Positions 2,679-17,240 of a DNA stretch of 64,000 nucleotides are shown piece by piece. Within the stretch, counting starts at the first letter, position 1; each line of letters opens with the position of its first letter. The notes beneath the pieces were generated by a model, which was not told where the DNA came from, did not search any database, and saw only the letters and a list, made by a program, of their open reading frames with translations. This DNA is from an uncultured Chloroflexia bacterium (GTDB lineage: Bacteria > Chloroflexota > Limnocylindria > Limnocylindrales > CSP1-4), in NCBI GenBank assembly GCA_963766735.1, contig CAVYBU010000003.1, positions 96,001 through 160,000 of the forward strand. The letters run 5' to 3'. The translations under genes were made by a program, and so were the position numbers.

Positions 2679-4838
2679 GTGGCCGTGGCGACGGACGTGC
2701 ATCCCGGCGTTCCCGATGCGCCCGGCCCGGCGGCGCCGGCAGTGTGGCCCGGTCGGCCGTACCCGCTGGGCGCGACGTTCGACGGCGCAGGCACCTCCTT
2801 CACGCTGTTCTCCGAGGTTGCCGACCGCGTCGAGCTGTGCCTGTTCGATGCCGATGGTGTCGAGACCCGGCTCGACCTGCCCGAGACGACCGGCCATGTC
2901 TGGCACGGGTACGTCCCGAGCGTCACGCCTGGGCAGCGGTACGGCTTCCGCGTCCATGGCCCCTGGGATCCGGCGCGCGGCCTGCGGAGCAACCCGGCAA
3001 AGCTGCTCATGGACCCGTACGCGAAGGCGATCGAGGGGTCGGTCGACTGGCACGAGGCGGTGTACCCGTACCGGTTCGGCTCCCCCGACGAGCTCGATGA
3101 CCGTGACAGCGCCCCATACGTTCCCCGATCGGTCGTCATCAACCCGTTCTTCGACTGGTCCGAGGACCGGTCCCCGCGTCGTGACCTGTACCAGGTCGTG
3201 ATCTACGAGACGCACGTCCGCGGGTTCACGATGACGCACCCCGAGATCCCGGAGGCGCTCCGCGGCACGTACGCCGGGCTCGCCCACCCGGCCGCCATCC
3301 GGCACCTCACGTCGCTGGGGGTCACCGCGGTGGAGCTGATGCCGGTCCACCAGTTCATCCACGACCAGCACCTGGTGGATCGCGGCCTGCGCAACTACTG
3401 GGGCTACAACTCGATCGGCTTCCTGGCACCCCACAACGAGTACGCGAGCTCGGGCCAGGCGGGCGAGCAGGTGGGCGAGTTCAAGGCGATGGTCCGCTCT
3501 CTCCACCAGGCCGGGATCGAGGTGATCCTCGATGTCGTCTACAACCACACCGCCGAAGGCAACCACCTGGGCCCGATGCTTGCCTTCAAGGGCATCGACA
3601 ACGTCGCCTTCTACCGGCTGATGAACGACGACCGGCGGCACTACATGGACTACACGGGGACCGGGAACTCCATCAACGTCCGCCACCCGCAGGTACTCCA
3701 GCTGATCATGGACAGCCTGCGGTACTGGGTGCTGGAGATGCACGTGGACGGGTTCCGATTCGACCTCGCCTCGACGCTTGCCAGGGAGCTCCACGACGTC
3801 GACCGCCTGTCTGCGTTCTTCGACCTCATCCACCAGGACCCGGTGATCAGCCAGGTCAAGCTGATCGCGGAGCCGTGGGACGTCGGCGAGGGCGGCTACC
3901 AGGTGGGCAACTTCCCCGTCCTGTGGTCGGAGTGGAACGGGCGCTACCGGGACACCGTGCGCGATTTCTGGCGCGGCGAGCCGGGCGCCATGAGCGACTT
4001 CGCCTACCGCCTGACGGGGAGCTCCGACCTGTACGAGGGCACCGGGCGGCGCCCGCATGCGAGCATCAACTTCGTCACCGCACACGACGGGTTCCCGCTG
4101 GCCGACCTCGTCGCCTACAACGAGAAGCACAACGACGCCAACGGTGAGGACGGCCGCGACGGGGAATCCCACAACCGTTCGTGGAACAGCGGTGTCGAGG
4201 GCCCGACGGATGACCACGGCGTGAACGCGCTGCGGCGTCGCCAGAGGCGCAACATGCTGGCGACCCTGTTCCTGTCGCAGGGCGTGCCGATGCTGCTTGG
4301 CGGCGATGAGCTGGGACGCAGCCAGGGCGGCAACAACAACGCGTATTGCCAGGACGGCCCCCTCTCGTGGTACGACTGGGAGCGGGCCGACGAGGACCAC
4401 CTCGCCTTCACCACCCACCTCCTGGCGTTCCGCCGGGACCACCCGGTGTTCCGCCGCCGCCGCTTCTTCCAGGGCAGGCCGATCCACGGCCAGGGCTTGA
4501 TGGATATCGAGTGGTTCACGACCGACGGTGCGGTGATGGAGGAGGAGTACTGGGGCCAGGACCACGCGCGCGACTTCGGGGTCCTGCTGTCCGGGGACGC
4601 GATCCCGACCCGCGACGAGCGGGGCGAGCCCGTCCGCGATGACACCTTCTACCTGCTGTTCAACGCGCGGAGCGAGGTGGTCCACGCGACACTCCCGCTC
4701 GGCAAGGGCCGGTGCTGGCGGGTGGTCCTGGACACCGGAGCCGACGAGCCCTTTCCGGCCGACGGCCCGTCATTCGCTCCCGGCGAGCGTTTGCGGTTGA
4801 CGGACCGCTCGGTCGTCGTCCTGCAGAGGGTCGAGTAG
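2679..4838 (+). CDS. glgX: Glycogen debranching enzyme (GH13)
   Basis: PYPLGAT, NYWGYN, DVVYNHT, DGFRFDLA, AEPWD, TAHDGF, GNNNAYCQD; RBS GAAGGGAGG. Confidence 0.97.
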   Translation: MAVATDVHPGVPDAPGPAAPAVWPGRPYPLGATFDGAGTSFTLFSEVADRVELCLFDADGVETRLDLPETTGHVWHGYVPSVTPGQRYGFRVHGPWDPARGLRSNPAKLLMDPYAKAIEGSVDWHEAVYPYRFGSPDELDDRDSAPYVPRSVVINPFFDWSEDRSPRRDLYQVVIYETHVRGFTMTHPEIPEALRGTYAGLAHPAAIRHLTSLGVTAVELMPVHQFIHDQHLVDRGLRNYWGYNSIGFLAPHNEYASSGQAGEQVGEFKAMVRSLHQAGIEVILDVVYNHTAEGNHLGPMLAFKGIDNVAFYRLMNDDRRHYMDYTGTGNSINVRHPQVLQLIMDSLRYWVLEMHVDGFRFDLASTLARELHDVDRLSAFFDLIHQDPVISQVKLIAEPWDVGEGGYQVGNFPVLWSEWNGRYRDTVRDFWRGEPGAMSDFAYRLTGSSDLYEGTGRRPHASINFVTAHDGFPLADLVAYNEKHNDANGEDGRDGESHNRSWNSGVEGPTDDHGVNALRRRQRRNMLATLFLSQGVPMLLGGDELGRSQGGNNNAYCQDGPLSWYDWERADEDHLAFTTHLLAFRRDHPVFRRRRFFQGRPIHGQGLMDIEWFTTDGAVMEEEYWGQDHARDFGVLLSGDAIPTRDERGEPVRDDTFYLLFNARSEVVHATLPLGKGRCWRVVLDTGADEPFPADGPSFAPGERLRLTDRSVVVLQRVE

Positions 4839-4844
4839 GCGCCC

Positions 4845-7607
4845 ATGCCCGATTCAGGCTCCCCCATCGAGGCGTTCGCAACCGGCCCCCGCCGGGTGGA
4901 TCCGCGCGCCACCTATCGGATCCAGCTGACGCCGGCGTTCACCTTCGACGATGCTGCCGGGATCGCGCCGTACCTGCAGGCCCTGGGGATCAGCCACGTC
5001 TACGCCTCGCCCTACCTGCGGGCGATGCCGGGCAGCCTCCACGGTTACGACGTCGTGGACCCGCGGAGGGTCAACCCGGAGCTCGGCGGCGAGGAGGGCC
5101 ACGCCCGGTTCAGCGCAACCCTGGGACGTCACGACCTGGGCCAGGTGCTCGACATCGTGCCCAACCACATGGCAATCGGGCCGGAGAACCCGTGGTGGTG
5201 GGACGTGCTCGAGAACGGGCCCGCCAGCCGCTGGGCGATGGCGTTCGACGTCGACTGGGCCCACCCGGAGCCACACCTCCGGGAGCGCGTCCTGCTGCCC
5301 GTTCTCGGCGACCACTACGGGCGGGTGCTCGAGGCCGGCGACCTGCGCCTCTCCTGGGATGGGCAGCGGTTCACCGTCCGGTACCACGAGCAGCGCTTCC
5401 CGGTGGCGCCCCGGAGCCTCGACGAGCTGCTCTCCCTCGCCGCCGAGCGGGCGGGCTCGGCCGAGCTCGCGTTCCTCGCCGACGCGTTCGGCGCGCTCCC
5501 GGCCTCGACCGTCGTCGAGCCGACGCTCCGCGAGCGCAGGCACCGCGACAAGGAGGTGCTCGAGGAGCGGCTCGAGGCCCTGGCCGTCGCCGAGCCCGGT
5601 GTCGCCGAGGCGATCGAGGCAGCCGTCGCCGCGACCAACGGCGACGTCGAGACCATGGACAGGATGCTCGAGCGCCAGAACTACCGCCTCTCCTGGTGGC
5701 GGGCGGCGCGCCGCGACCTCGGCTACCGCCGCTTCTTCGACGTGACGACCCTGGTCGGACTTCGGATCGAGGACCCGAGGGTGTTCGCCGAGACGCAGGC
5801 GCTGATCCTCGAGTGGCTCGCGGCCGGGGTCCTCGACGGCCTGCGGATCGACCACCCCGATGGTCTCCTCGATCCGGAGGGTTTCCTGCGGCGGCTTCGC
5901 TGGGCGAGCCCGCGGGCATGGATCGTCGTCGAGAAGATCCTGGAGCCCGGCGAGGAGCTGCGACGGAGCTGGCCGGTTGCCGGGACAAGCGGCTACGACT
6001 TCCTCCGCCGCGCAAACGGGCTGTTCGTGGACCCGGCCGGCGAGGGCCCGCTGACCGACCTGCAGACGCAGGTCACGGGCGAGGACCGTCCGTTCCGGGA
6101 CATCGCCCAGGAGTCGAAGGTGGCCATCCTCGACGAGGTCCTCGGGTCGGAGCTCGGGCGGCTCACGGCGCTCCTGCTCGACGTGCTCGAGCGGCTCCGC
6201 CGCCACCGGGACCACACTCGGCACGACCTGCACGACGCGCTCCGGGCCCTCCTGGTCGCGTTCCCCGTGTACCGGACCTACGTGCGGGTGGAGATCGCGG
6301 ACGATGGACGCCGCCTCACGCAGGTCGCCCCCGAAGACGAGGCGGTCGTGGGCGAGGCGGTCGAGGCCGCGAAGCTCCTCCGACCGGACCTGCCGCCCGA
6401 CCTGTTCGACATCCTCGGCGATCTGCTCCTGCTCCGCCGGCCGGGCGACGAGCTGGAGGAGGAGCTTGCCCTGCGGTTCCAGCAGCTCACGGGACCCGTC
6501 ATGGCAAAGGGCCTCGAGGACACGGCGTTCTACCGCGACCTGCGCCTCCTGGCGCTCAACGAGGTCGGCGGGGATCCGGGGACGTTCGGGACGAGCGTCG
6601 CCGACTTCCACGACGCGAACCGGATGGCGCAGGAGCGCTGGCCCCTCGGGATGCTCACGACCTCGACCCACGACACGAAGCGGAGCGAGGATGTCCGGAC
6701 GCGGCTCGCGGTCCTGTCCGAGGTACCCGACGCGTGGGCGCGGACGGTCTCGGAGTGGCGCCGGATGGGCGACCCGTATCGCACCGACGCAGGCCCGGAC
6801 GGTCACGCCGAGTACCTCCTCTACCAGACGCTGGTGGGCGCCTGGCCGATCGGCATGGACCGGCTCGGCCCCTACCTGTCAAAGGCCCTCCGCGAGGCCA
6901 AGCTCCGGACAACCTGGACCGCCCCAGATGCCGCCTACGAAGCCGCGGTGGTCTCGTTCGCGGAGGGCCTGCTGGGGGACGAGGAGTTCCGCACATCGCT
7001 CGAGGCGTTCATGGGCACGGTCCTCCGCCCGGGTCGCGTCAACTCGCTCGCCCAGCTCCTGGTCAAGCTCACGTCCCCCGGCGTCCCGGACGTCTACCAG
7101 GGGGCGGACCTGTGGGACATGAGCCTCGTCGATCCCGACAACCGGCGCCCGCTGGATGTCGGGATCCGGCATCGGATCCTCGCCGAGCTGACCGGCGATG
7201 GCGGACCCTCGCCCGAGGCACTGGCCGACCGGCTCGACGATCCGGCCGAGCCGGGATCGCCCAAGCTGGCTGTCCTCCGGGCGGCGCTCGCCGTCCGTGC
7301 CCGGGAGCCCGAGGCCTTCGGTCCGTCGGCGACCTACGAGCCGCTGACCGCCGACGGGACCGCGGCCGAGCACGTCATCGGGTTCGTCCGGACCGGCCGC
7401 GTCGCGACGATCGCTCCCCGCCTGACGGTCTCGCTCGGAGGTGACTGGTCCGACACGACGGTCGCCCTGGCCGCCGGTCGTTGGCGGAACGAGCTCACCG
7501 GTGAGGTCCACGAGGTAGGAGACACCCCGAAGTCCGGCCCCCTGCTGGTCGGCGACGTGCTCGGACGGTTCCCGGTCGCCCTGCTCGTCCGCGAGGAGGT
7601 GTCGTGA
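4845..7607 (+). CDS. treY: Malto-oligosyltrehalose synthase
   Basis: ATYRIQL, HGYDVVD, DIVPNHM, YRRFFDV, GLRIDHPDGL, TSTHDTKRSED. Confidence 0.97.
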   Translation: MPDSGSPIEAFATGPRRVDPRATYRIQLTPAFTFDDAAGIAPYLQALGISHVYASPYLRAMPGSLHGYDVVDPRRVNPELGGEEGHARFSATLGRHDLGQVLDIVPNHMAIGPENPWWWDVLENGPASRWAMAFDVDWAHPEPHLRERVLLPVLGDHYGRVLEAGDLRLSWDGQRFTVRYHEQRFPVAPRSLDELLSLAAERAGSAELAFLADAFGALPASTVVEPTLRERRHRDKEVLEERLEALAVAEPGVAEAIEAAVAATNGDVETMDRMLERQNYRLSWWRAARRDLGYRRFFDVTTLVGLRIEDPRVFAETQALILEWLAAGVLDGLRIDHPDGLLDPEGFLRRLRWASPRAWIVVEKILEPGEELRRSWPVAGTSGYDFLRRANGLFVDPAGEGPLTDLQTQVTGEDRPFRDIAQESKVAILDEVLGSELGRLTALLLDVLERLRRHRDHTRHDLHDALRALLVAFPVYRTYVRVEIADDGRRLTQVAPEDEAVVGEAVEAAKLLRPDLPPDLFDILGDLLLLRRPGDELEEELALRFQQLTGPVMAKGLEDTAFYRDLRLLALNEVGGDPGTFGTSVADFHDANRMAQERWPLGMLTTSTHDTKRSEDVRTRLAVLSEVPDAWARTVSEWRRMGDPYRTDAGPDGHAEYLLYQTLVGAWPIGMDRLGPYLSKALREAKLRTTWTAPDAAYEAAVVSFAEGLLGDEEFRTSLEAFMGTVLRPGRVNSLAQLLVKLTSPGVPDVYQGADLWDMSLVDPDNRRPLDVGIRHRILAELTGDGGPSPEALADRLDDPAEPGSPKLAVLRAALAVRAREPEAFGPSATYEPLTADGTAAEHVIGFVRTGRVATIAPRLTVSLGGDWSDTTVALAAGRWRNELTGEVHEVGDTPKSGPLLVGDVLGRFPVALLVREEVS

Positions 7608-10156: not shown

Positions 10157-11871
10157 TCCGCCTCTCCGCCGTGGAATACCGGGAGCGCTACGGGCCCACC
10201 ACGGGCGACCGGATCCGGCTGGGAGACACGGACCTCTGGATCCGCGTGCAGGAGGACCGCACCGCGCCCGGCGACGAGCCGATCTGGGGCTATGCCAAGA
10301 ACCTCCGGATGCGCATGGCGCAGACCGAGGGGCCCGCGGGACCGTCCGAGCTCGATTTCGTCATCGCCGGCGCGCTCGTCGTCGATCCCGTCATCGGCGC
10401 CGTCAAGGCGGACATCGGCATCAAGGACGGCAGGATCGCCGGTATCGGGCGCGCGGGAAGCCCCGAGATCAGCGATGGCATCGACCTGGTCGTCGGCCCG
10501 CACACCAAGCCGTACATGGCCTACGGGATGATCGTCACGCCGGGCGCGGTGGACTCGCACGTCCACACCATCAGCCCGGAGCTGCTCCCGGCGGCCCTCG
10601 CCGCGGGCGTGACCACGTTCATCACCGCCGGGTTCGAGGAGCCGCCGTACGCGATGGAGCGGGTGCTGGCGGGGCTCGAGAGCTGGCCGGTCAACGTCGC
10701 GATGCAGGCGGGCGCCCGGGCCATCGAGGACGGGCACCTGGACGCGCTGCTCGAGGCCGGTGCGGTGGGCTTCAAGATCCACGAGGACAACGGCGCCGAC
10801 CCGGACCTCATCGACCACGTGCTGCGGTACGCGGACCTGCGCGACGTCTCCGTGAGCCTCCATACGGACGGCCTGCACGAGTCCGCCGAGCTGGAGGACA
10901 CCGTCGCGGCCATCGCCGGGCGCACCGTCCACGCCTACCACGTGGAGGGGACGGGAGGCGGGCACGTGCCGGACCTGCTGGGACTGGTCCGCGAGCCGTC
11001 GATCCTGTGCTCGTCCACCACGCCCACGCTGCCGTTCGGCGTGCACGCGGCGGTGGAACACCTGCCGATGACGGTCCTGAACCACGGCCTGTCCTGGAAC
11101 GTTCCGGGGGACGTGGCGCTCGTTCTGGAGCGCATCCTGGAGGCCCGGATGGCGGCGGAGGGGCCGCTGCACGAGCTGGGGGCGATCGGGATCATCAACA
11201 GCGACTCGCAGGGGATGGGGCGCATCGGCGAGACGGTGCGGCGGGCTTTCCAGCTGGCGCACGTGATGAAGGCCTGGCGCCGTTCCGGGGCTGCCGACGG
11301 GTTGCCGGGCCTGCCCGATGATGACGGCCTCCTGGACCCCGACGATCGGGACGACACGGCGCGCGTGCTGCGCTACCTGGCGAAGGTGACGATCGAGCCC
11401 GCGATCACGCACGGCATCTCGGACCATGTCGGGTCGCTACAGGTGGGGCGGCTGGCGGACCTCGTGATATGGAAGCCCGGGTTCTTCGGCGTGAAGCCCG
11501 AGTGGGTGTTCAAGGGCGGCTTTCCGGCCTGGGGACCGCTGGGCGATGGGAACGCGTCGCTGGAGCGCACGGAGCCAACCCGGTACCGGCCGGACTGGGC
11601 CGGGATCTCCACGGCCGCGCCAAAGGTCACGGTCACCTTCGTGGCACCCGGGATCGATCGCGTGGGACTGGCACGGCGGCTGGGAACCCGGCGGGCGCTG
11701 CTCCCGGTCCACGGCCTGCGCGGGCTGACGCGTTCCTCGCTGCACGCCAACCGGGCCACGGCGCCGGTGGAGATCGACGTGCGGACGGGGGCGGTGTCCC
11801 TGGGCGGGCGGACGCTGGCCGTGGACCCGGTGACGGAGGTCCCGCTCAGCCGTCGCTACCTGCTGCGGTAG
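10153..11871 (+). CDS. ureC: Urease alpha subunit homolog (divergent amidohydrolase)
   Basis: YGPTTGDRIRL, DSHVH, FKIHED, LHTD, YHVEG.GGGH, SDSQGMGR; ATGA overlap with the upstream gene. Confidence 0.88.
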   Translation: MIRLSAVEYRERYGPTTGDRIRLGDTDLWIRVQEDRTAPGDEPIWGYAKNLRMRMAQTEGPAGPSELDFVIAGALVVDPVIGAVKADIGIKDGRIAGIGRAGSPEISDGIDLVVGPHTKPYMAYGMIVTPGAVDSHVHTISPELLPAALAAGVTTFITAGFEEPPYAMERVLAGLESWPVNVAMQAGARAIEDGHLDALLEAGAVGFKIHEDNGADPDLIDHVLRYADLRDVSVSLHTDGLHESAELEDTVAAIAGRTVHAYHVEGTGGGHVPDLLGLVREPSILCSSTTPTLPFGVHAAVEHLPMTVLNHGLSWNVPGDVALVLERILEARMAAEGPLHELGAIGIINSDSQGMGRIGETVRRAFQLAHVMKAWRRSGAADGLPGLPDDDGLLDPDDRDDTARVLRYLAKVTIEPAITHGISDHVGSLQVGRLADLVIWKPGFFGVKPEWVFKGGFPAWGPLGDGNASLERTEPTRYRPDWAGISTAAPKVTVTFVAPGIDRVGLARRLGTRRALLPVHGLRGLTRSSLHANRATAPVEIDVRTGAVSLGGRTLAVDPVTEVPLSRRYLLR

Positions 11872-11921
11872 CGTCCCGCCAGCGGGGACGGCGGCGTCGA
11901 CGGGCCCGGAAGTCGCGACGC

Positions 11922-12974
11922 CTACCAGATGTCCCCGACCGTGAACCCCTCGGGGAACGGGTCCGTGGGATCCACGACGTATGACGCGAAGCCCGTGATC
12001 CACGCCGTGCCGGTGATGGACGGGACGATGGCGGCACGCTCACCCACGGCTGTCTCCGCCTCCACCCGTCCAGCGAACACCGTGTCCAGGATGCTCTCGT
12101 GGCGGAACTCCTCACCCAGGCGGAGGCGGCCCCGTGCGTGCAGCGTGGCCATCTTTGCGCATGTCCCGGTCCCGCACGGAGAGCGATCCAGGACGCCGGT
12201 CCACGTGGACGGATCAGACCAATCGAGCGTTCGCGTGGAGACCGTCGTGGCGTTGCGCCACGAGTTGCGTGGGTCGTGCGGTGGACCGGACAGCTGGCCG
12301 ATGGTGATGCCGGCGAACCCGGGCTGCTCGGGGTGGACGACCGGGAGCTGCTCCGCTGCCGCCGCCTTGATCATCTCTGTGACGCGGGTGATGTCGCGAC
12401 CCTCGTCAGGGACAAGCCGAAAGCCGAGCGCCTCCGCGTCCGCGATGACGTGGAACATGCCGCCGTACGCCACGTCCACGGTCACCGTGCCCAGCTCCGG
12501 CACCTCGATCGGCGCGTCCAGGTGTGTGGCGAACGCCGGGACGTTGCTGAACGTGACACCGGTGACCTTGCCTCCGGCGCAGGTGGCGCGGATCCGGATC
12601 AGGCCGGCGGGCGCCTCCAGGACGATCTCGGTCACGGGTTCGTGCATCGGCAGCATGCCCGTCTCGAGCAGCGCGGTGGCGACGCAGATCGTGTTGGACC
12701 CGGACATGCCCGGGTACTCGACGTGCTCCATGATCACGAACCCCGCATCGGCGTCCGGCTGCGTGGGCGGCAGGATCACGTTGGCGCACAGGGCGGGGTA
12801 GCCGCGCGGCTCGCGGAGCAGGAGGCGCCGGAGCGAGTCGCCGTGGTGCTCGAGGTGCTGCGCCTTGTCGAACATGGTGGCGCCGGGGACGTCCAGCACG
12901 CCCCCGACGACGACGCGCCCCGGCTCGCCTGCCGCATGCAGGTCGACCGCCTGGATCATCCGCGCGAGCCGCAT
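11922..12974 (-). CDS. Proline racemase / hydroxyproline epimerase family protein (Ser/Cys catalytic pair)
   Basis: DLHAAGEPGR, EPRG, MSGSN, DRSPCGTGT; RBS AAGGAGG before ATG 12974. Confidence 0.9.
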   Translation of the reverse strand: MRLARMIQAVDLHAAGEPGRVVVGGVLDVPGATMFDKAQHLEHHGDSLRRLLLREPRGYPALCANVILPPTQPDADAGFVIMEHVEYPGMSGSNTICVATALLETGMLPMHEPVTEIVLEAPAGLIRIRATCAGGKVTGVTFSNVPAFATHLDAPIEVPELGTVTVDVAYGGMFHVIADAEALGFRLVPDEGRDITRVTEMIKAAAAEQLPVVHPEQPGFAGITIGQLSGPPHDPRNSWRNATTVSTRTLDWSDPSTWTGVLDRSPCGTGTCAKMATLHARGRLRLGEEFRHESILDTVFAGRVEAETAVGERAAIVPSITGTAWITGFASYVVDPTDPFPEGFTVGDIW

Positions 12975-13005
12975 CCGGCGTCCTCCTTGATCCCGTCGGG
13001 CGGCC

Positions 13006-13464
13006 CTAGCGCCTGCGCGCGTCGGCGACCTGGCGTTCCATGTCCCGCTTCGCGTCGCGCTCCGCGATCTCGCGCCGCCTGTCCCACGTCTGCTTGCCGC
13101 GCGCGAGGCCGAGCTCAACCTTCGCCCTGCCGCGGGAGATGTAGATCGAGAGGGGCACGATCGTCAGGCCCTTGGCCTTGGTCTTGCCCAGGAGCTCGTC
13201 GATCTCGCGCCGGTGGAGCAGCAGCTTCCGGGCACGCTTCGGCTCGTGGTTGAAGCGGACGTCGGTCGTCCCCCACGGGGCGATGTGGAGGCCGATGATC
13301 CAGGCCTCGTCGCGTTCGATGCGCGCGTAGGCGTCCGCGAGGCTCACCTTGTGGTCGCGGATGCTCTTGATCTCGGTGCCGCGCAGCACGATTCCGGCCT
13401 CGAAGGTGTCCTCGATGCTGTAGTCGTGGTGGGCTCTTCGGTTTCGGGCGATCGTGTCGCCCAT
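13006..13464 (-). CDS. smpB: SsrA-binding protein
   Basis: NRRAHHDY..EAGIVLRGTEIKS, RKLLLH, GLARGK; RBS AGGAGAGGAG before ATG 13464. Confidence 0.97.
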   Translation of the reverse strand: MGDTIARNRRAHHDYSIEDTFEAGIVLRGTEIKSIRDHKVSLADAYARIERDEAWIIGLHIAPWGTTDVRFNHEPKRARKLLLHRREIDELLGKTKAKGLTIVPLSIYISRGRAKVELGLARGKQTWDRRREIAERDAKRDMERQVADARRR

Positions 13465-13530
13465 GGCGGAGCTCCTCTCCTGGGGTGGAACGGCCAGTGT
13501 CGCACGGGCGACTCCGGACTCCGGACGCAC

Positions 13531-13560
13531 GAACGCCGGCCCGTTGCCGGACCGGCGTTC
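13531..13560 (-). terminator. GC-rich hairpin, probable intrinsic terminator
   Basis: GAACGCCGG...CCGGCGTTC 9-bp inverted repeat between the small ORF and smpB; the U-tract is weak. Confidence 0.6.
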
Positions 13561-13591
13561 ATTTGCTACCGACCACCCGTCGGGATCGCAA

Positions 13592-13642
13592 CTAGGCGGC
13601 GATCTCCAACGAGGTGGTGCAGCAACTACTACCGTCTATCAC
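13592..13642 (-). CDS. Putative 16-aa peptide MIDGSSCCTTSLEIAA
   Basis: AAAGGAGGTGAT SD at 13648-13659, GTG start 9 nt after AGGAGG, TAG stop; flanked by a promoter and a terminator. Confidence 0.6.
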   Translation of the reverse strand: MIDGSSCCTTSLEIAA

Positions 13643-13670
13643 TGCACATCACCTCCTTTCGTTCGGGAGG

Positions 13671-13699
13671 ACCGTAACCGATGATCCGGTTTGGTGCAA
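13671..13699 (-). promoter_or_regulatory. Sigma70-type promoter TTGCAC-N17-TACGGT
   Basis: -35 at 13694-13699, -10 at 13671-13676, exact 17-nt spacer, directly upstream of the strong SD. Confidence 0.6.
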
Positions 13700-13750
13700 C
13701 CCCGGTCCCGGCGAGGGATGCACAGCGGGCTCCTTCCGGGCCCGTCACGT

Positions 13751-13950
13751 ACCAGCGTGGCTGGTGATCGGCGCGATGCCGCCGGGTCGTGCCGCGTCCG
13801 AACGGTGCGGCCCAGGCAACCGGAGCGCGCAGACGGGGCCCCACAGGTCCGATCGAGCGCCGCCCGCGTTCCGGCCCCGACGAGCACCAGCTTGGCTGGT
13901 AGGTGACCGGAGCGCAGGCCCCGCGCCCGGCCGGTACCAGCTCCAGTGGT
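13751..13950. repeat. Three 15-bp ACCA-N7-TGGT palindromes
   Basis: ACCAGCGTGGCTGGT 13751-13765, ACCAGCTTGGCTGGT 13886-13900, ACCAGCTCCAGTGGT 13936-13950. Confidence 0.65.
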
Positions 13951-13995
13951 GCGTGTCGGGAGGTGCCGCGCGGCCGCGGCAGCCGAGCGCGGGAC

Positions 13996-15412
13996 TCAGG
14001 CGGCGGTACGGATGCCGAACCCCGTGACGGTCGCCCCCAGCTCCTCGAGCGCCGCGTCCAGGACCGGATCGTCGCCGGGCTTCGATGGAGCCGTGTCCAC
14101 CACGACGTCCGGCGTCAGGCCCTTGCCGTGGATCCAGGTCTTGTTCGGGGTCAGCCACTTCGCGATCGTCAACCGGAAGCCGCCGCTGTCGCCCTCGAGC
14201 TGTGTCCACTGCTGGACCGTGCCCTTGCCGAAGGTCTGGGTGCCGATCAGCTTCGCGCGCCCGCGATCCTGCAGCGCGCCGGCCACGATCTCGGATGCCG
14301 ACGCTGTGCCCCCATCGACGAGGACCACGAGCTGGATGGCAGGGTCCGCTGCCGCGCCGCCGGGCTGGGCCACGGTCTCGGTCAGGTTCCCGTCCGCGTC
14401 CTCCTGCCAGAAGACCGTGCCGTCCGCGAGGAACTGGCTGGCAACCTCGCGCGCCGCGGTCACGAACCCGCCGGGATTGCCCCGCAGGTCCAGGATCAGC
14501 TTCGTCCGCCCAGCCTTGACGTCCTCGGCCGCCGCCTCGTCCAGCGCCTCGGCCGAGTGGTCCGAGAACCCCGACAGGCGGATGTAGCCGACCGTCCCAC
14601 CGGCGAGATCCCGCGTCTGGACCTCCGGCGTGACGATCACGTCGCGCACGATCTCGATGTCGAGCTTCTCCGACCCGCGCTCGACCGACAGCACCACGGC
14701 GCTGCCCTTCGGTCCGCGGATCTGCCCGAGGGCCGCGTCGGTCGTGAGCCCGTCCAGCGGCTTGCCGTCGACCCTCGTGATCACGTCGCCCGGACGGAGG
14801 CCCGCCTTGTCCGCCGGTGAGCCCGGGATGGGTGCCACGACCGCAAGCCGGCAGTCGGCGCCGAGGGTTGTGCACCCCGAGGTGTCGCCGGCGGCGTCCA
14901 CCGTGCCGATCGTGGCCCCGATCCCCTCGAACTCGCCCGAGATGCTGCGGAGCGACTCCTTGTACTCGGCCGGGGTGAGGTACATGGAGTACGGGTCGCC
15001 AATGGCCGAGATCATCCCGTCGATCGCGCCCTGGATCAGGACGCGCCGGTCCACCTCGCCACCCGCGTAGCGCTCGGTCACCGCGCGGTACGCGTCCCAG
15101 AACGCCTGGAAGTCCTCGGCCTCGCTGGTCGGCGTGCCCGGGGTCAGCGCGGTCTGCCGGCCGAGGGTCCAGCCCGACAGGAACAGCGTTGCCCCGGCCA
15201 TCACCGCGATCAGCGCGATGGCGACGACGAGCACGCCGCCGCGGCGACCGGGTGGGGTGGCGGTGGCGGGCGCAACTGGTGGCGCGGGGAGCGGCCCGGG
15301 ATCCGGGGAGGCAGCGCTCGTCCGGCGCGCCGTCGGGTTCGCGGTCGGGTGCAGGAACCACCGGCGCTGCCTCGGCCGGGGTGTCCTGCGGGGTGGTCGG
15401 CTCAAGCTGCAT
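13996..15412 (-). CDS. Carboxy-terminal processing protease, S41 family (CtpA/Tsp-like); start uncertain, possible 1-nt frameshift near 15317
   Basis: TM anchor, GEFEGIG PDZ region, DLRGNPGG, TASASEI, TFGKGTVQ. Confidence 0.9.
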
Positions 15413-15581
15413 GAACGGATCTCGATCGGGTTCGGGTGCCGCTGTGGCGCGGGCCGCCAGCGTACAGCCGGACCCGGATCCGGGTCTTGAACGAGGTTGC
15501 GCGGAGGTGCCGGGCCGGCGCACCTGGCCGGGGTCCGGGCCGCCGGCGCACCCGAGCCGGGATCCCGAGTGCCGGCAGGTA

Positions 15582-16466
15582 TCAGCGGATCAGGTACGTC
15601 CGCACGGACACCCAGGAGCCCAGCACGCCCAGCCCCAGGCCCGTGGCGATCACGATCAGCGCCGTGTCCCGGCCGAGCGAGCCCAGCTGCAGCGGCAGCA
15701 CGTTGAAGAAGCCGACCATCGCCGCCGAGAGAGGATCGGCCGCGGCGACGAGCAGTCCGATGGTGATCAGCGCGCCCAGCAGTCCCACGAGAGCTCCCTC
15801 GAACACGAACGGCCAGCGGATGAACGCATCCGACGCCCCCACCAGCCGCATGATCTCGATCTCCTCGGCGCGCGCGACCACCGCGAGCCGGATGGTGTTC
15901 ACGATGATGAACAGCACGATCACCCCGACGACCGCCACCATCGCCACGCCAGCCGTGCGGACGAAGGACGTGATGGTGACCACGCGTTCGACCAGCGCCT
16001 CGATGTTCAGCACGCTGCGCACGATCGGCTCGTCGCGCAGTGCCGACGCCACCGCGTCCAGGTCGCGCGGTGTCCGGAGCCCGACGTTGATGCTGGCGTA
16101 GAGCGGATTGGCCTCGAGGTACTTCGTCAGGTCCTCGCGTCCCTGCGCCTCCTGCGCCTCACGGAACCTGCGGAGCGCCTCGTCACGCGACACGAACTCG
16201 ACCGAGGTCGACTCCGGCATCGCGTCGACCGTGGTCACGAGCGCATCGACCTGCTCCTGCGTGGCCGTGTTCTCGACGTAGGCGACCACCTCGACCTTCT
16301 GCTCGACATACGAGAGGCTGGCGAGGAGCACGTTCTGAAGGATCAGGAAGCTGGCCAGCAGCAGGAGCATGAGCACCATCGTGAGCGTGGCCGCGAGGCT
16401 CATCAGCGCGTTCCGCCAGAACCCCTGCCAGGCTCTCCGGAGCGAGAAGGCGACGAAGGTGATCAC
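15582..16466 (-). CDS. ftsX: Cell division permease FtsX
   Basis: Four-TM pattern, NTIRLAV..RAEEIEIMRLVGA, PF..EG. Confidence 0.95.
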   Translation of the reverse strand: MITFVAFSLRRAWQGFWRNALMSLAATLTMVLMLLLLASFLILQNVLLASLSYVEQKVEVVAYVENTATQEQVDALVTTVDAMPESTSVEFVSRDEALRRFREAQEAQGREDLTKYLEANPLYASINVGLRTPRDLDAVASALRDEPIVRSVLNIEALVERVVTITSFVRTAGVAMVAVVGVIVLFIIVNTIRLAVVARAEEIEIMRLVGASDAFIRWPFVFEGALVGLLGALITIGLLVAAADPLSAAMVGFFNVLPLQLGSLGRDTALIVIATGLGLGVLGSWVSVRTYLIR

Positions 16467-16472
16467 GATCCG

Positions 16473-17240
16473 TCAGTCCTCGCGATGATAGGTCGCGCCG
16501 ATCTCGTCGCGGATGACCCGGCCATCCTCCAGCGCCACGACGCGCTTTCGCAGCGCGGTGACCACGTCGGCCTGGTGGGTGGCCATCAGGATGGTGACCC
16601 CCATCCCGTTGATCCGGAGCAGGAGCTGGATGATCTCCCAGCTGATGACCGGGTCAAGGTTCCCGGTCGGCTCGTCCGCGATGATGAGGCGCGGGTCGTG
16701 CACGAGCGCACGCGCGATCGCCGTCCGCTGCTGCTCCCCGCCCGAGAGCTGGGTGGGGAGCTGGGCCGCCTGGCCCGTGAGGCCCACGAGCGCCAGGACG
16801 CGGTCAACGGACGGGCGCACGGCCTTCCGCGGCGAACCGGTGACCTCGAGCGCGAAGGCCACGTTCTCCCAGACGGTCTTGCGCGGCAGCAGCTTGAAGT
16901 CCTGGAAGACGATGCCGATCTTGCGGCGGACCTTCGGCACCATCCGGCGCGGGAGCCGGGCAAGGTCGTGGCCGTCCACCAGGACGTCGCCGCGCGTCGC
17001 CAGCTCATCGCGGATCAGCAGCTTCATCAGCGTGGACTTGCCGGCCCCGGATGGTCCGACCAGGAACACGAAGTCGCCCTCCGGCACCACGAGATCAACC
17101 TCGCGAAGTGCCTCATTGCCGTTGGGATAGCGCATCGTCACGTCGTGCAGGACGACGACGTTGTGATCCGCACGCTCCGGGCGACGGCGCCCGCGGAGGC
17201 GATCGAGGAGGGACGGCAGCGTGCCGGGGGAGGCGGTCAT
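16473..17240 (-). CDS. ftsE: Cell division ATP-binding protein FtsE
   Basis: GPSGAGKST, IGIVFQDFKLL, LSGGEQQR, ADEPTGNLDP; upstream of ftsX. Confidence 0.95.
   Translation of the reverse strand: MTASPGTLPSLLDRLRGRRRPERADHNVVVLHDVTMRYPNGNEALREVDLVVPEGDFVFLVGPSGAGKSTLMKLLIRDELATRGDVLVDGHDLARLPRRMVPKVRRKIGIVFQDFKLLPRKTVWENVAFALEVTGSPRKAVRPSVDRVLALVGLTGQAAQLPTQLSGGEQQRTAIARALVHDPRLIIADEPTGNLDPVISWEIIQLLLRINGMGVTILMATHQADVVTALRKRVVALEDGRVIRDEIGATYHRED

Follow-up and report, generated by a model that had tools for sequence, protein, structure and literature searches.

What does selection maintain in the short conserved block of DNA that precedes smpB in an uncultured bacterium of the Chloroflexota? 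The DNA analysed here, called the window throughout, is a stretch of 64,000 nt (contig CAVYBU010000003.1, positions 96,001 to 160,000) from a member of the class Candidatus Limnocylindria, and the element in question lies on its minus strand between a gene for an S41 C-terminal processing peptidase and smpB, which encodes a core component of ribosome rescue and about whose regulation, to our knowledge, little is known. An earlier note on this DNA, made from the letters alone, had proposed an independent transcription unit of ~140 nt with a promoter, a strong Shine-Dalgarno (SD) sequence, a 16-codon open reading frame (ORF) that hides its own ribosome-binding site (RBS) and a terminator-like hairpin, and had offered as possible roles a leader or attenuator of smpB, an active peptide and a dual-function small RNA (sRNA) or switch. 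Comparison with relatives suggests that the ORF is translated and that its amino-acid sequence is free to vary. We tentatively read the element, at a probability that we place just short of even, as a translated leader or mini-mRNA with which the smpB transcription unit begins and which acts by engaging ribosomes, not through its peptide. Its parts are given below in window positions, with taxon labels here and throughout as in the sequence records.

13699-13523, minus strand: the element as a whole, with promoter, SD sequence, GTG-started ORF of 16 codons, alternative pairings and hairpin
13699-13694, minus strand: -35 hexamer TTGCAC, its TTG unchanged throughout the 20-genome genus alignment
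13676-13671, minus strand: -10 hexamer TACGGT, separated from the -35 hexamer by a 17-nt spacer
~13665-13663, minus strand: predicted 5′ end of the RNA, from the usual promoter spacing
13660-13648, minus strand: SD sequence GAAAGGAGGTGAT, 13 nt, perfectly complementary to the 3′ end of 16S rRNA, the motif being invariant in 20/20 genus members
13659-13648, minus strand: 12-mer SD core AAAGGAGGTGAT
13655-13638, minus strand: segment 1, with SD core, spacer and start codon, the 5′ strand of the closed helix in the minimum free energy (MFE) fold
13642-13592, minus strand: short ORF MIDGSSCCTTSLEIAA, 16 codons plus stop, with its GTG start at 13642 and its TAG stop at 13594-13592
13626-13611, minus strand: segment 2, anti-SD-like, codons 6-11, with segment 1 or segment 3 as its partner
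13608-13581, minus strand: hairpin P2 with the stop codon within its loop, compensatory changes occurring at 8/9 pairs in 65 sequences
13579-13565, minus strand: segment 3, a look-alike of segment 1 and the open-state partner of segment 2 in the RNAalifold consensus
13561-13530, minus strand: GC-rich, terminator-like terminal hairpin of -29 kcal/mol, with the U-tract absent in this genus
13529-13523, minus strand: post-hairpin tail TGCGTCC, invariant in 20/20 genus members
13464-13006, minus strand: smpB, with its ATG at 13464, 66 nt past the hairpin, its synteny in relatives determined by tblastn
13996-15405, minus strand: S41 C-terminal processing peptidase gene, the upstream neighbour, listed for context only

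The positions that had been proposed for promoter, SD sequence, ORF, hairpin and smpB all hold, the promoter by virtue of its conservation in relatives, and the segment is indeed less GC-rich than its surroundings, with a GC content of 0.573 over 13550-13699 against 0.68-0.77 in the flanks. The neighbouring genes (ftsX, S41, smpB and metabolic genes) were named by eye from the ORF translations, and only SmpB and S41 served as queries.

The frame was analysed in 194 distinct sequences. All of them carry a start codon 8-11 nt after GGAGG (GTG in 171, ATG in 22 and TTG in one), and the frame is closed by TAG in 105, TAA in 62 and TGA in 24, the remaining three being sequences that end before the stop. 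The ORF comprises 13-17 codons in families f1, f2 and f4 of the class and 26-28 codons in family f3. Of 149 short ORFs, 147 carry the conserved motif RCCRCC 18, 21, 24 or 27 nt from the start codon, so that insertions and deletions within the ORF come in threes. Substitutions, by comparison, are spread evenly over the three codon positions: the summed column entropies for positions 1/2/3 are 9.2/10.4/9.4 in f1, 4.6/5.8/4.8 in f4 and 13.3/13.0/12.2 in f3, and the nonsynonymous exceed the synonymous single-nucleotide differences in each of these families (2024:794 in f1, 491:227 in f4 and 846:242 in f3), which is roughly the neutral expectation. This even variation argues that the amino-acid sequence of the peptide is not under selection. 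By evolutionary criteria the ORF is thus an open frame under selection and is translated, and, since the frame is kept while amino-acid variation is neutral, selection appears to act on the occurrence of translation and on the position of its end, not on the peptide made. The element is a clear case of a conserved frame with freely varying amino acids.

That the product is nevertheless a bioactive 16-residue peptide, be it a protease tag mimic, a metal-binding Cys peptide or the precursor of a ribosomally synthesized and post-translationally modified peptide (RiPP), appears highly improbable to us. Such a role could draw on the translation of the ORF, on the adjoining S41 protease and smpB genes and on the S-C-C-T-T-S core found in this genus, but Cys is missing in many f4 members, the Thr pair is replaced by Ala-Ala in f2, and the residues that are retained more widely, C/A-T-T-S/E plus a Glu lying four or five codons short of the end, are precisely what the RNA pairing segments encode. 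The EIAA tail, which had been likened to the end of the ssrA tag, turned out to be one of many endings: the tmRNA tag of this genome is ANKQPALALAA, and the C-termini of the ORF are AA, VV, VA, GA, VL or GL within the genus and R, K, H, S or N elsewhere, which tells against a tag mimic, as do the missing Cys residues and the even codon-position variation against a metal-binding or RiPP-like peptide. Furthermore, the S41 gene went undetected beside most f3 loci, and no gene for a modifying enzyme was recognised by eye among the ORFs of 10500-17000. The ORF comparison revealed neither a single-codon run conserved across families nor a conserved arrest motif.

Two further observations concern the frame. 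At four f3 loci (L046, L085, L087 and L091) an indel in the middle of the ORF shifts the frame, and the conserved C-terminal half is in frame not with the usual start but with another GTG located 4 nt after GGAGG; either true alternative starts or indels from assembly could explain this. A mini-frame of two codons, GTG-CAG-TGA (13647-13639, minus strand), overlaps the main start at 20/20 loci of the genus set collected first (L001-L020); many sequences outside that set have it too, but some lack it.

The start of the RNA and its SD sequence are the next parts to be considered. A generic sigma-70 scan detected no promoter at the element, and the promoter call therefore rests on conservation: the pattern TTGNNN-N16-18-TANNNT was found at a fixed distance in 164 of 197 distinct relatives, and the end of the -10 hexamer lies 10-12 nt ahead of AAAGGAGG in 162 of these 164 promoters, with exactly 11 nt in 121. 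From this fixed spacing we infer that only ~3-6 nt of RNA precede the SD sequence. It had been called the strongest in the window and proved stronger than claimed. The 12-mer AAAGGAGGTGAT has two occurrences in the 3.6-Mb assembly, one in the element and the other, in complement, at the 3′ end of the 16S gene, and the preceding G extends the duplex, read against the genome's own 16S sequence, to 13 consecutive bp; the GTG follows 9 nt after GGAGG. An A-to-G variant of the SD sequence is present in f4 and f2, and because the 16S 3′ end in f4 is unchanged, the variant base would form a G-U wobble with 16S rRNA there. Covariation of the SD sequence with the 16S tail, a candidate explanation of this variant, was ruled out, as the A-to-G change tracks segment 2 instead.

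This arrangement resembles the STAB-SD element of the Bacillus thuringiensis cry3A mRNA, for which a review describes an SD-like sequence near the mRNA 5′ end whose bound 30S subunit blocks 5′-3′ decay by RNase J1 and which functions without translation (PMC4113751). The likeness lies in the position of the 16S-complementary sequence close to the 5′ end, and RNase J is encoded in the genome studied here (598 bits against a cut-off of 400); the difference is that our element has a conserved start, frame and stop together with a switch that hides the SD sequence. The independence of STAB-SD from translation is in line with a purely non-coding sRNA, whose SD-like 5′ end would only capture 30S subunits, serving as a stabiliser or sponge, whose ORF would be incidental and whose in-frame stop would be kept only against non-stop complexes arising from accidental translation. 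RNA pairing would then account for every conserved amino acid, and loss of the stop in GC-rich sequence would run ribosomes to the end of the RNA. However, the start codon stands at optimal spacing in 194/194 sequences despite turnover between GTG, ATG and TTG, whereas its loss would be the simplest escape from unwanted translation, and we consider this explanation improbable.

The coding region had been suggested to occlude its own RBS, and folding bore this out. The MFE fold of the region (-81.5 kcal/mol, z = -6.56), which was matched in stability by 0/200 shuffles, closes the RBS by pairing 13655-13638 with 13626-13611 in 16 bp with a 2-nt bulge. RNAalifold, applied to the genus alignment, instead paired segment 2 with the purine-rich segment 3 and not with the SD sequence, in a helix that encloses the stop-codon hairpin, and the pairings of segments 1:2 and 2:3 are mutually exclusive. 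Opening of the SD sequence costs 1.5 kcal/mol in the window sequence versus 11.9 kcal/mol with the downstream part shuffled (0/30 shuffles as low), and it is this cheap because segment 2 re-pairs with segment 3. The median opening costs of real versus shuffled sequences were 2.9 vs 10.6 kcal/mol in the genus (f1g1), 4.1 vs 7.7 in the rest of f1, 8.4 vs 15.4 in f2, 8.5 vs 15.1 in f4 and 2.6 vs 5.5 in f3. With the two states only a few kcal/mol apart in the genus, the leader RNA is predicted to be a two-state switch of the RBS there. The closed helix, at 16 bp, is long for a thermosensor.

Support for the individual pairs was counted in 65 class members. Compensatory changes affect 12 of the 14 pairs of the terminal hairpin (97% of cells paired), which is strong support for it. 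The outer part of the segment 2:3 helix changes on both sides at 7/7 pairs, a count that is favoured by the fitting of the alignment to that structure. The outer nine pairs of the closed helix are nearly invariant, with 97% of cells paired, and this helix changes on both sides between classes (GAUGCCU/AGGCAUC at locus L065 vs GUGCAG/CUGCAC in this class). The logic of three segments recurs with other sequences in f3, f2 and other classes; in f3, the SD sequence is hidden by a different downstream sequence and an SD-like third segment is kept.

How far does this unit extend among relatives, and how firmly is it tied to smpB? A BLAST search with the 531-nt spacer between the S41 gene and smpB matched only ~160 nt (~13683-13521), at 83-94% identity in 23 of 24 genus genomes, and the rest of the spacer is not conserved in the genus. 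Across the alignment of 20 genus members, columns are 92% identical on average, and there is no variation in the SD/start block, mid-ORF or hairpin; smpB is located downstream at 20/20 of these loci and the S41 gene upstream at 19/20. A covariance model built from this 20-member alignment found one true copy in the window's own genome and matched 140 of 151 class genomes, or 135 of 146 without five unpublished ones, all five of which were matched. Most genomes gave one match and a minority two, few of the latter having been inspected. The genomes with a match were distributed over the families as follows.

f1: 44/44 genomes
f2: 6/6 genomes
f3: 42/49 genomes
f4: 46/50 genomes
f5: 1/1 genome

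Five of the 11 misses were inspected via smpB; four of them carry a complete element before smpB, and in the fifth, where the sequence is masked, the end of the element is visible. Among 27 excised class matches, smpB follows directly on the same strand in 25, and two are spurious, the model having picked up a different RNA whose hairpin is alike. Scanning one genome per prokaryotic species for the motif returned at least 119 stretches, nearly all titled Chloroflexota or Candidatus Limnocylindria, and in 65 of the 80 stretches that were analysed smpB follows within 600 nt downstream. The other 15 comprise five without room for it, six with a long form from Ktedonobacterales, two with unrelated genes, one unexplained case and one locus, L198, that is discussed below. 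The link between element and smpB persists across the class while the identity of SmpB falls to ~48-54%, and it persists likewise at the f3 loci without a detectable S41 gene, so that of the two neighbours pointed out by the earlier note only smpB proved to be a class-wide companion.

In two f4 genomes (L056 and L063, genus g26) the model also matched another RNA-like stretch; its GC-rich hairpin is very similar, but it has no SD sequence, ORF or nearby smpB. Typical elements are also present on contigs titled Bathyarchaeia, Alphaproteobacteria, Zixiibacteriota, Steroidobacteraceae and Saccharimonadales (L148, L165, L166, L201 and L216), with smpB downstream in L165, L166, L201 and L216 and no room for it in L148; these five oddly titled contigs are probably mis-binned or mislabelled.

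The gap between hairpin and smpB, determined for 120 distinct loci, measures 64 nt at the median and 13 nt at its shortest and is below 40 nt in 15 of the 120. Gaps below 40 nt hardly fit a separate promoter and therefore favour read-through from the leader promoter. RNA data were available as assembled contigs from four metatranscriptomes, in which uncovered parts, depths and contig ends are uninterpretable. Three of them (X2, X3 and X5) have RNA-library contigs over the element, although contigs alone do not demonstrate transcription; one such contig runs unbroken over 13166-13703 and bridges smpB and the element, and one smpB-bearing contig stops at 13509.

A terminator scan flags the terminal hairpin on the plus strand only, as the minus strand lacks a U-tract in this genus, while U-rich tails follow the hairpin in f3, f4 and other Chloroflexota classes. 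The independent transcription unit envisaged at the outset is accordingly backed by the conserved promoter, ORF and hairpin but not, in this genus, by a U-tract. Leader ORF, alternative pairings, terminator-like hairpin and downstream gene stand in the order usual for a classical attenuator, in which stalling at the Ser/Cys/Thr codons or slow translation would lead to an antiterminator and to transcription of smpB. In truncated transcripts of this genus, segment 3 is predicted to pair with the hairpin's 5′ arm in an interrupted helix of 10 bp, which would suit that scheme. The helix is, however, not predicted in f4 or f2, and the gain from pairing the 5′ arm is -9.1 kcal/mol vs -9.7 kcal/mol for shuffled arms, with 23 of 40 shuffles equalling it; in all six groups tested, the gain equals that of shuffled arms. 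The Ser/Cys/Thr codons, moreover, coincide with the RNA pairing segments, and the stop codon lies 22-36 nt ahead of the hairpin (counted by hand), out of reach of a terminating ribosome. With an antiterminator no better than chance and no regulatory codon run, the classical attenuator was rejected as a candidate and its probability is low, which leaves the leader option of the earlier note close to our own reading and removes its attenuator variant.

The trp-, his- and thr-type attenuators and rnTrpL/peTrpL have in common a translated leader ORF, mutually exclusive pairings, a terminator hairpin and a short terminated RNA. Our element has neither their regulatory codon run nor an antiterminator that overlaps the terminator, its switch concerns the leader's own RBS, and its stop codon is far from the hairpin. 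In the translational attenuation of ermC and cat, translation of a leader rearranges helices that hide an SD sequence, the hidden SD sequence being that of the downstream gene and a drug-stalled ribosome opening it. The element shares with these systems the leader ORF and the SD-hiding helices, but here the hidden SD sequence is the leader's own and there is no conserved arrest motif.

For the translated leader we propose the following course of events, in which anatomy, conservation, selection on the frame, two-state energetics and synteny are shown, and transcript ends, read-through, 30S sensing and stabilisation are inferred. The RNA would begin a few bases before the 13-nt complement of the 16S tail, with the start codon 9 nt after GGAGG and a frame of 13-28 codons behind it. 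Segment 2 would close the RBS when paired with segment 1 and leave it open when paired with segment 3, past the stop codon. Binding of a 30S subunit to the exposed SD sequence would compete with closure of the RBS, and a translating ribosome would unzip segment 2 from segment 3; once it reached the stop codon, segment 2 would be free and segment 3 partly covered by the ribosome, favouring re-closure unless a new 30S subunit had already bound. As a consequence of this competition, the occupancy of the RBS would follow the supply of free 30S subunits, with translation of the short frame resetting the switch. The in-frame stop would release the ribosome well ahead of the RNA end, the stable hairpin would end most transcripts as an RNA of ~140 nt, and smpB, located 13-66 nt beyond the hairpin in many genomes, would probably be reached by read-through. 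A read-through smpB mRNA would inherit the ribosome-bound 5′ end, which could shield it from RNase J in a STAB-SD-like manner.

A wider version of this scheme takes the unit as a kinetic sensor of the free 30S pool that operates across much of the phylum and became wired to smpB in Limnocylindria, the 5′-terminal 13-nt SD sequence racing an ORF-embedded anti-SD and the ORF, kept in frame but free in sequence, resetting the race in each round. We regard it as unlikely; if it were true, ribosome-sensing leaders would gain a new type, and smpB its first described cis-regulator.

Several observations weigh against a leader of smpB. The distance from the stop codon to the hairpin places the hairpin beyond the terminating ribosome for this scheme as well, and without an antiterminator no RNA feature is visible that would couple read-through to the switch. 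Within the class the closed helix is conserved without covariation, with both sides changed in one of the nine outer pairs, and the sign of the feedback is not obviously homeostatic, as fewer free ribosomes would mean less protection. The bridging RNA-library contig extends 98 nt past the promoter, and contigs are blind to ends, strand and level. Several f4 gaps contain TAGCAT- or TAGGAT-like hexamers 12-20 nt before an SD-less smpB ATG, so that smpB may have its own promoter with a short leader there. At L198 (a contig of a metagenome-assembled genome, ~4610-6823) the element lies between smpB and S41 on the opposite strand, possibly through a natural inversion, possibly through an error of assembly; should the inversion be real, smpB would there be expressed without the leader promoter. 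Outside the class, matches were found in only 9 of 136 other sampled Chloroflexota genomes, with the same layout and no smpB nearby, and the relatives from Ktedonobacterales and other classes are free-standing, without smpB within ~1.5 kb, from which it follows that the unit can work without smpB.

These free-standing relatives, which possess U-tract terminators and varied neighbours, also speak for the main rival explanation, an autonomous small gene. It would be a dual-nature sRNA or mini-mRNA that serves translation in general, for example by binding 30S subunits and so buffering or reporting their free pool, or by acting in trans through an exposed segment 2, and its position before smpB would reflect synteny or promoter sharing. 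Its own promoter, its own stable terminal hairpin, the missing structural coupling of switch and hairpin, the inverted element of L198 and the RNA-library contigs over the element in three of four metatranscriptomes would all suit such a gene. On the other hand, the smpB link is class-wide even where the upstream neighbour differs, and gaps of 13-30 nt leave scant space for a separate smpB promoter. As for action in trans, pairing was tried for the genome's tmRNA and the smpB 5′ region and gave duplex energies weaker than shuffled ones, a result that, the unrestricted duplex method being crude, only means a lack of support for these two targets. The dual-function sRNA or switch suggested earlier stays among the closest readings, with promoter, hairpin and translated ORF present as judged from sequence, but it is left without a trans target among the two. 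We consider the autonomous gene a possible but rather unlikely explanation, and the translated leader of smpB remains our preferred, tentative reading.

The relatives from Ktedonobacterales (so titled; L157, L163, L172, L167, L218 and L193) have a longer form with an ORF of 24 codons, located away from smpB, in which a long-range helix joins the ORF to a segment ~150 nt downstream. At three Ktedonobacterales loci, a biotin ligase-like ORF (birA) is located 350-520 nt downstream, followed by greA- and lysS-like ORFs, these names having been assigned by eye.

Is the element already known under another name? A comparison of 11500-15500 with Rfam 15 yielded six matches at E-values up to 10, none of which reached its gathering score, in agreement with the earlier statement that no recognised family matches. 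The best of them, RF01867 (CC2171), scored 24.8 bits against a gathering score of 75, with E = 0.02 in the 4-kb scan and 0.004 genome-wide. CC2171 is described as an expressed sRNA of Alphaproteobacteria with unknown function (bioRxiv 10.1101/2022.01.24.477521). The family consensus opens, like our element, with an extended stretch complementary to the 16S 3′ end, then GUG, and closes in a GC-rich hairpin, but the middle of the model is unaligned to the element. The same model gave weak matches in five further control genomes (6 of 14 in all, one over the cut-off), and the likeness is therefore generic, reflecting a strong SD sequence plus a hairpin. Membership in CC2171 was rejected, the score being far below the gathering score and homology not supported. 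Full-text literature searches, supplementary files excluded, found no description of this element or of any smpB leader.

The single parts, a leader ORF, sequestration of an SD sequence and a 5′ SD stabiliser, are thus known, and their combination is undescribed in Rfam 15 and in the literature searched. The combination comprises a full, 5′-terminal anti-SD complement, an ORF-internal anti-SD that has a decoy further downstream, conservation of a frame irrespective of its peptide and class-wide linkage to smpB. The constraints on the sequence suggest that what selection sees is the engagement of ribosomes, not the peptide, and a switch that did report ribosome availability would tie the pool of free ribosomes to the capacity for ribosome rescue. 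Regardless of its function, the element constitutes a well-defined new RNA family of ~200 distinct sequences for curation of the Rfam type.

Some minor features surround the element. The non-conserved part of the spacer contains three imperfect 15-nt palindromes, ACCAG/ACCAC-N5-CTGGT, at 13950-13936, 13900-13886 and 13765-13751 (minus strand), and this part of the spacer has a weak match elsewhere in the same genome (contig G000:C32, E = 9e-7); it could be a repeat element or an operator. On the other side of the element, the invariant tail that follows the hairpin, GTGCGTCC (13530-13523), is echoed ~25 nt further on by CGTGCGACACT (13506-13496). The RNA contig end at 13509 adjoins the latter motif, which proves nothing. 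The motif CGTGCGACACT was seen again before smpB in several genus members and could serve as a site for a protein or as part of a promoter.

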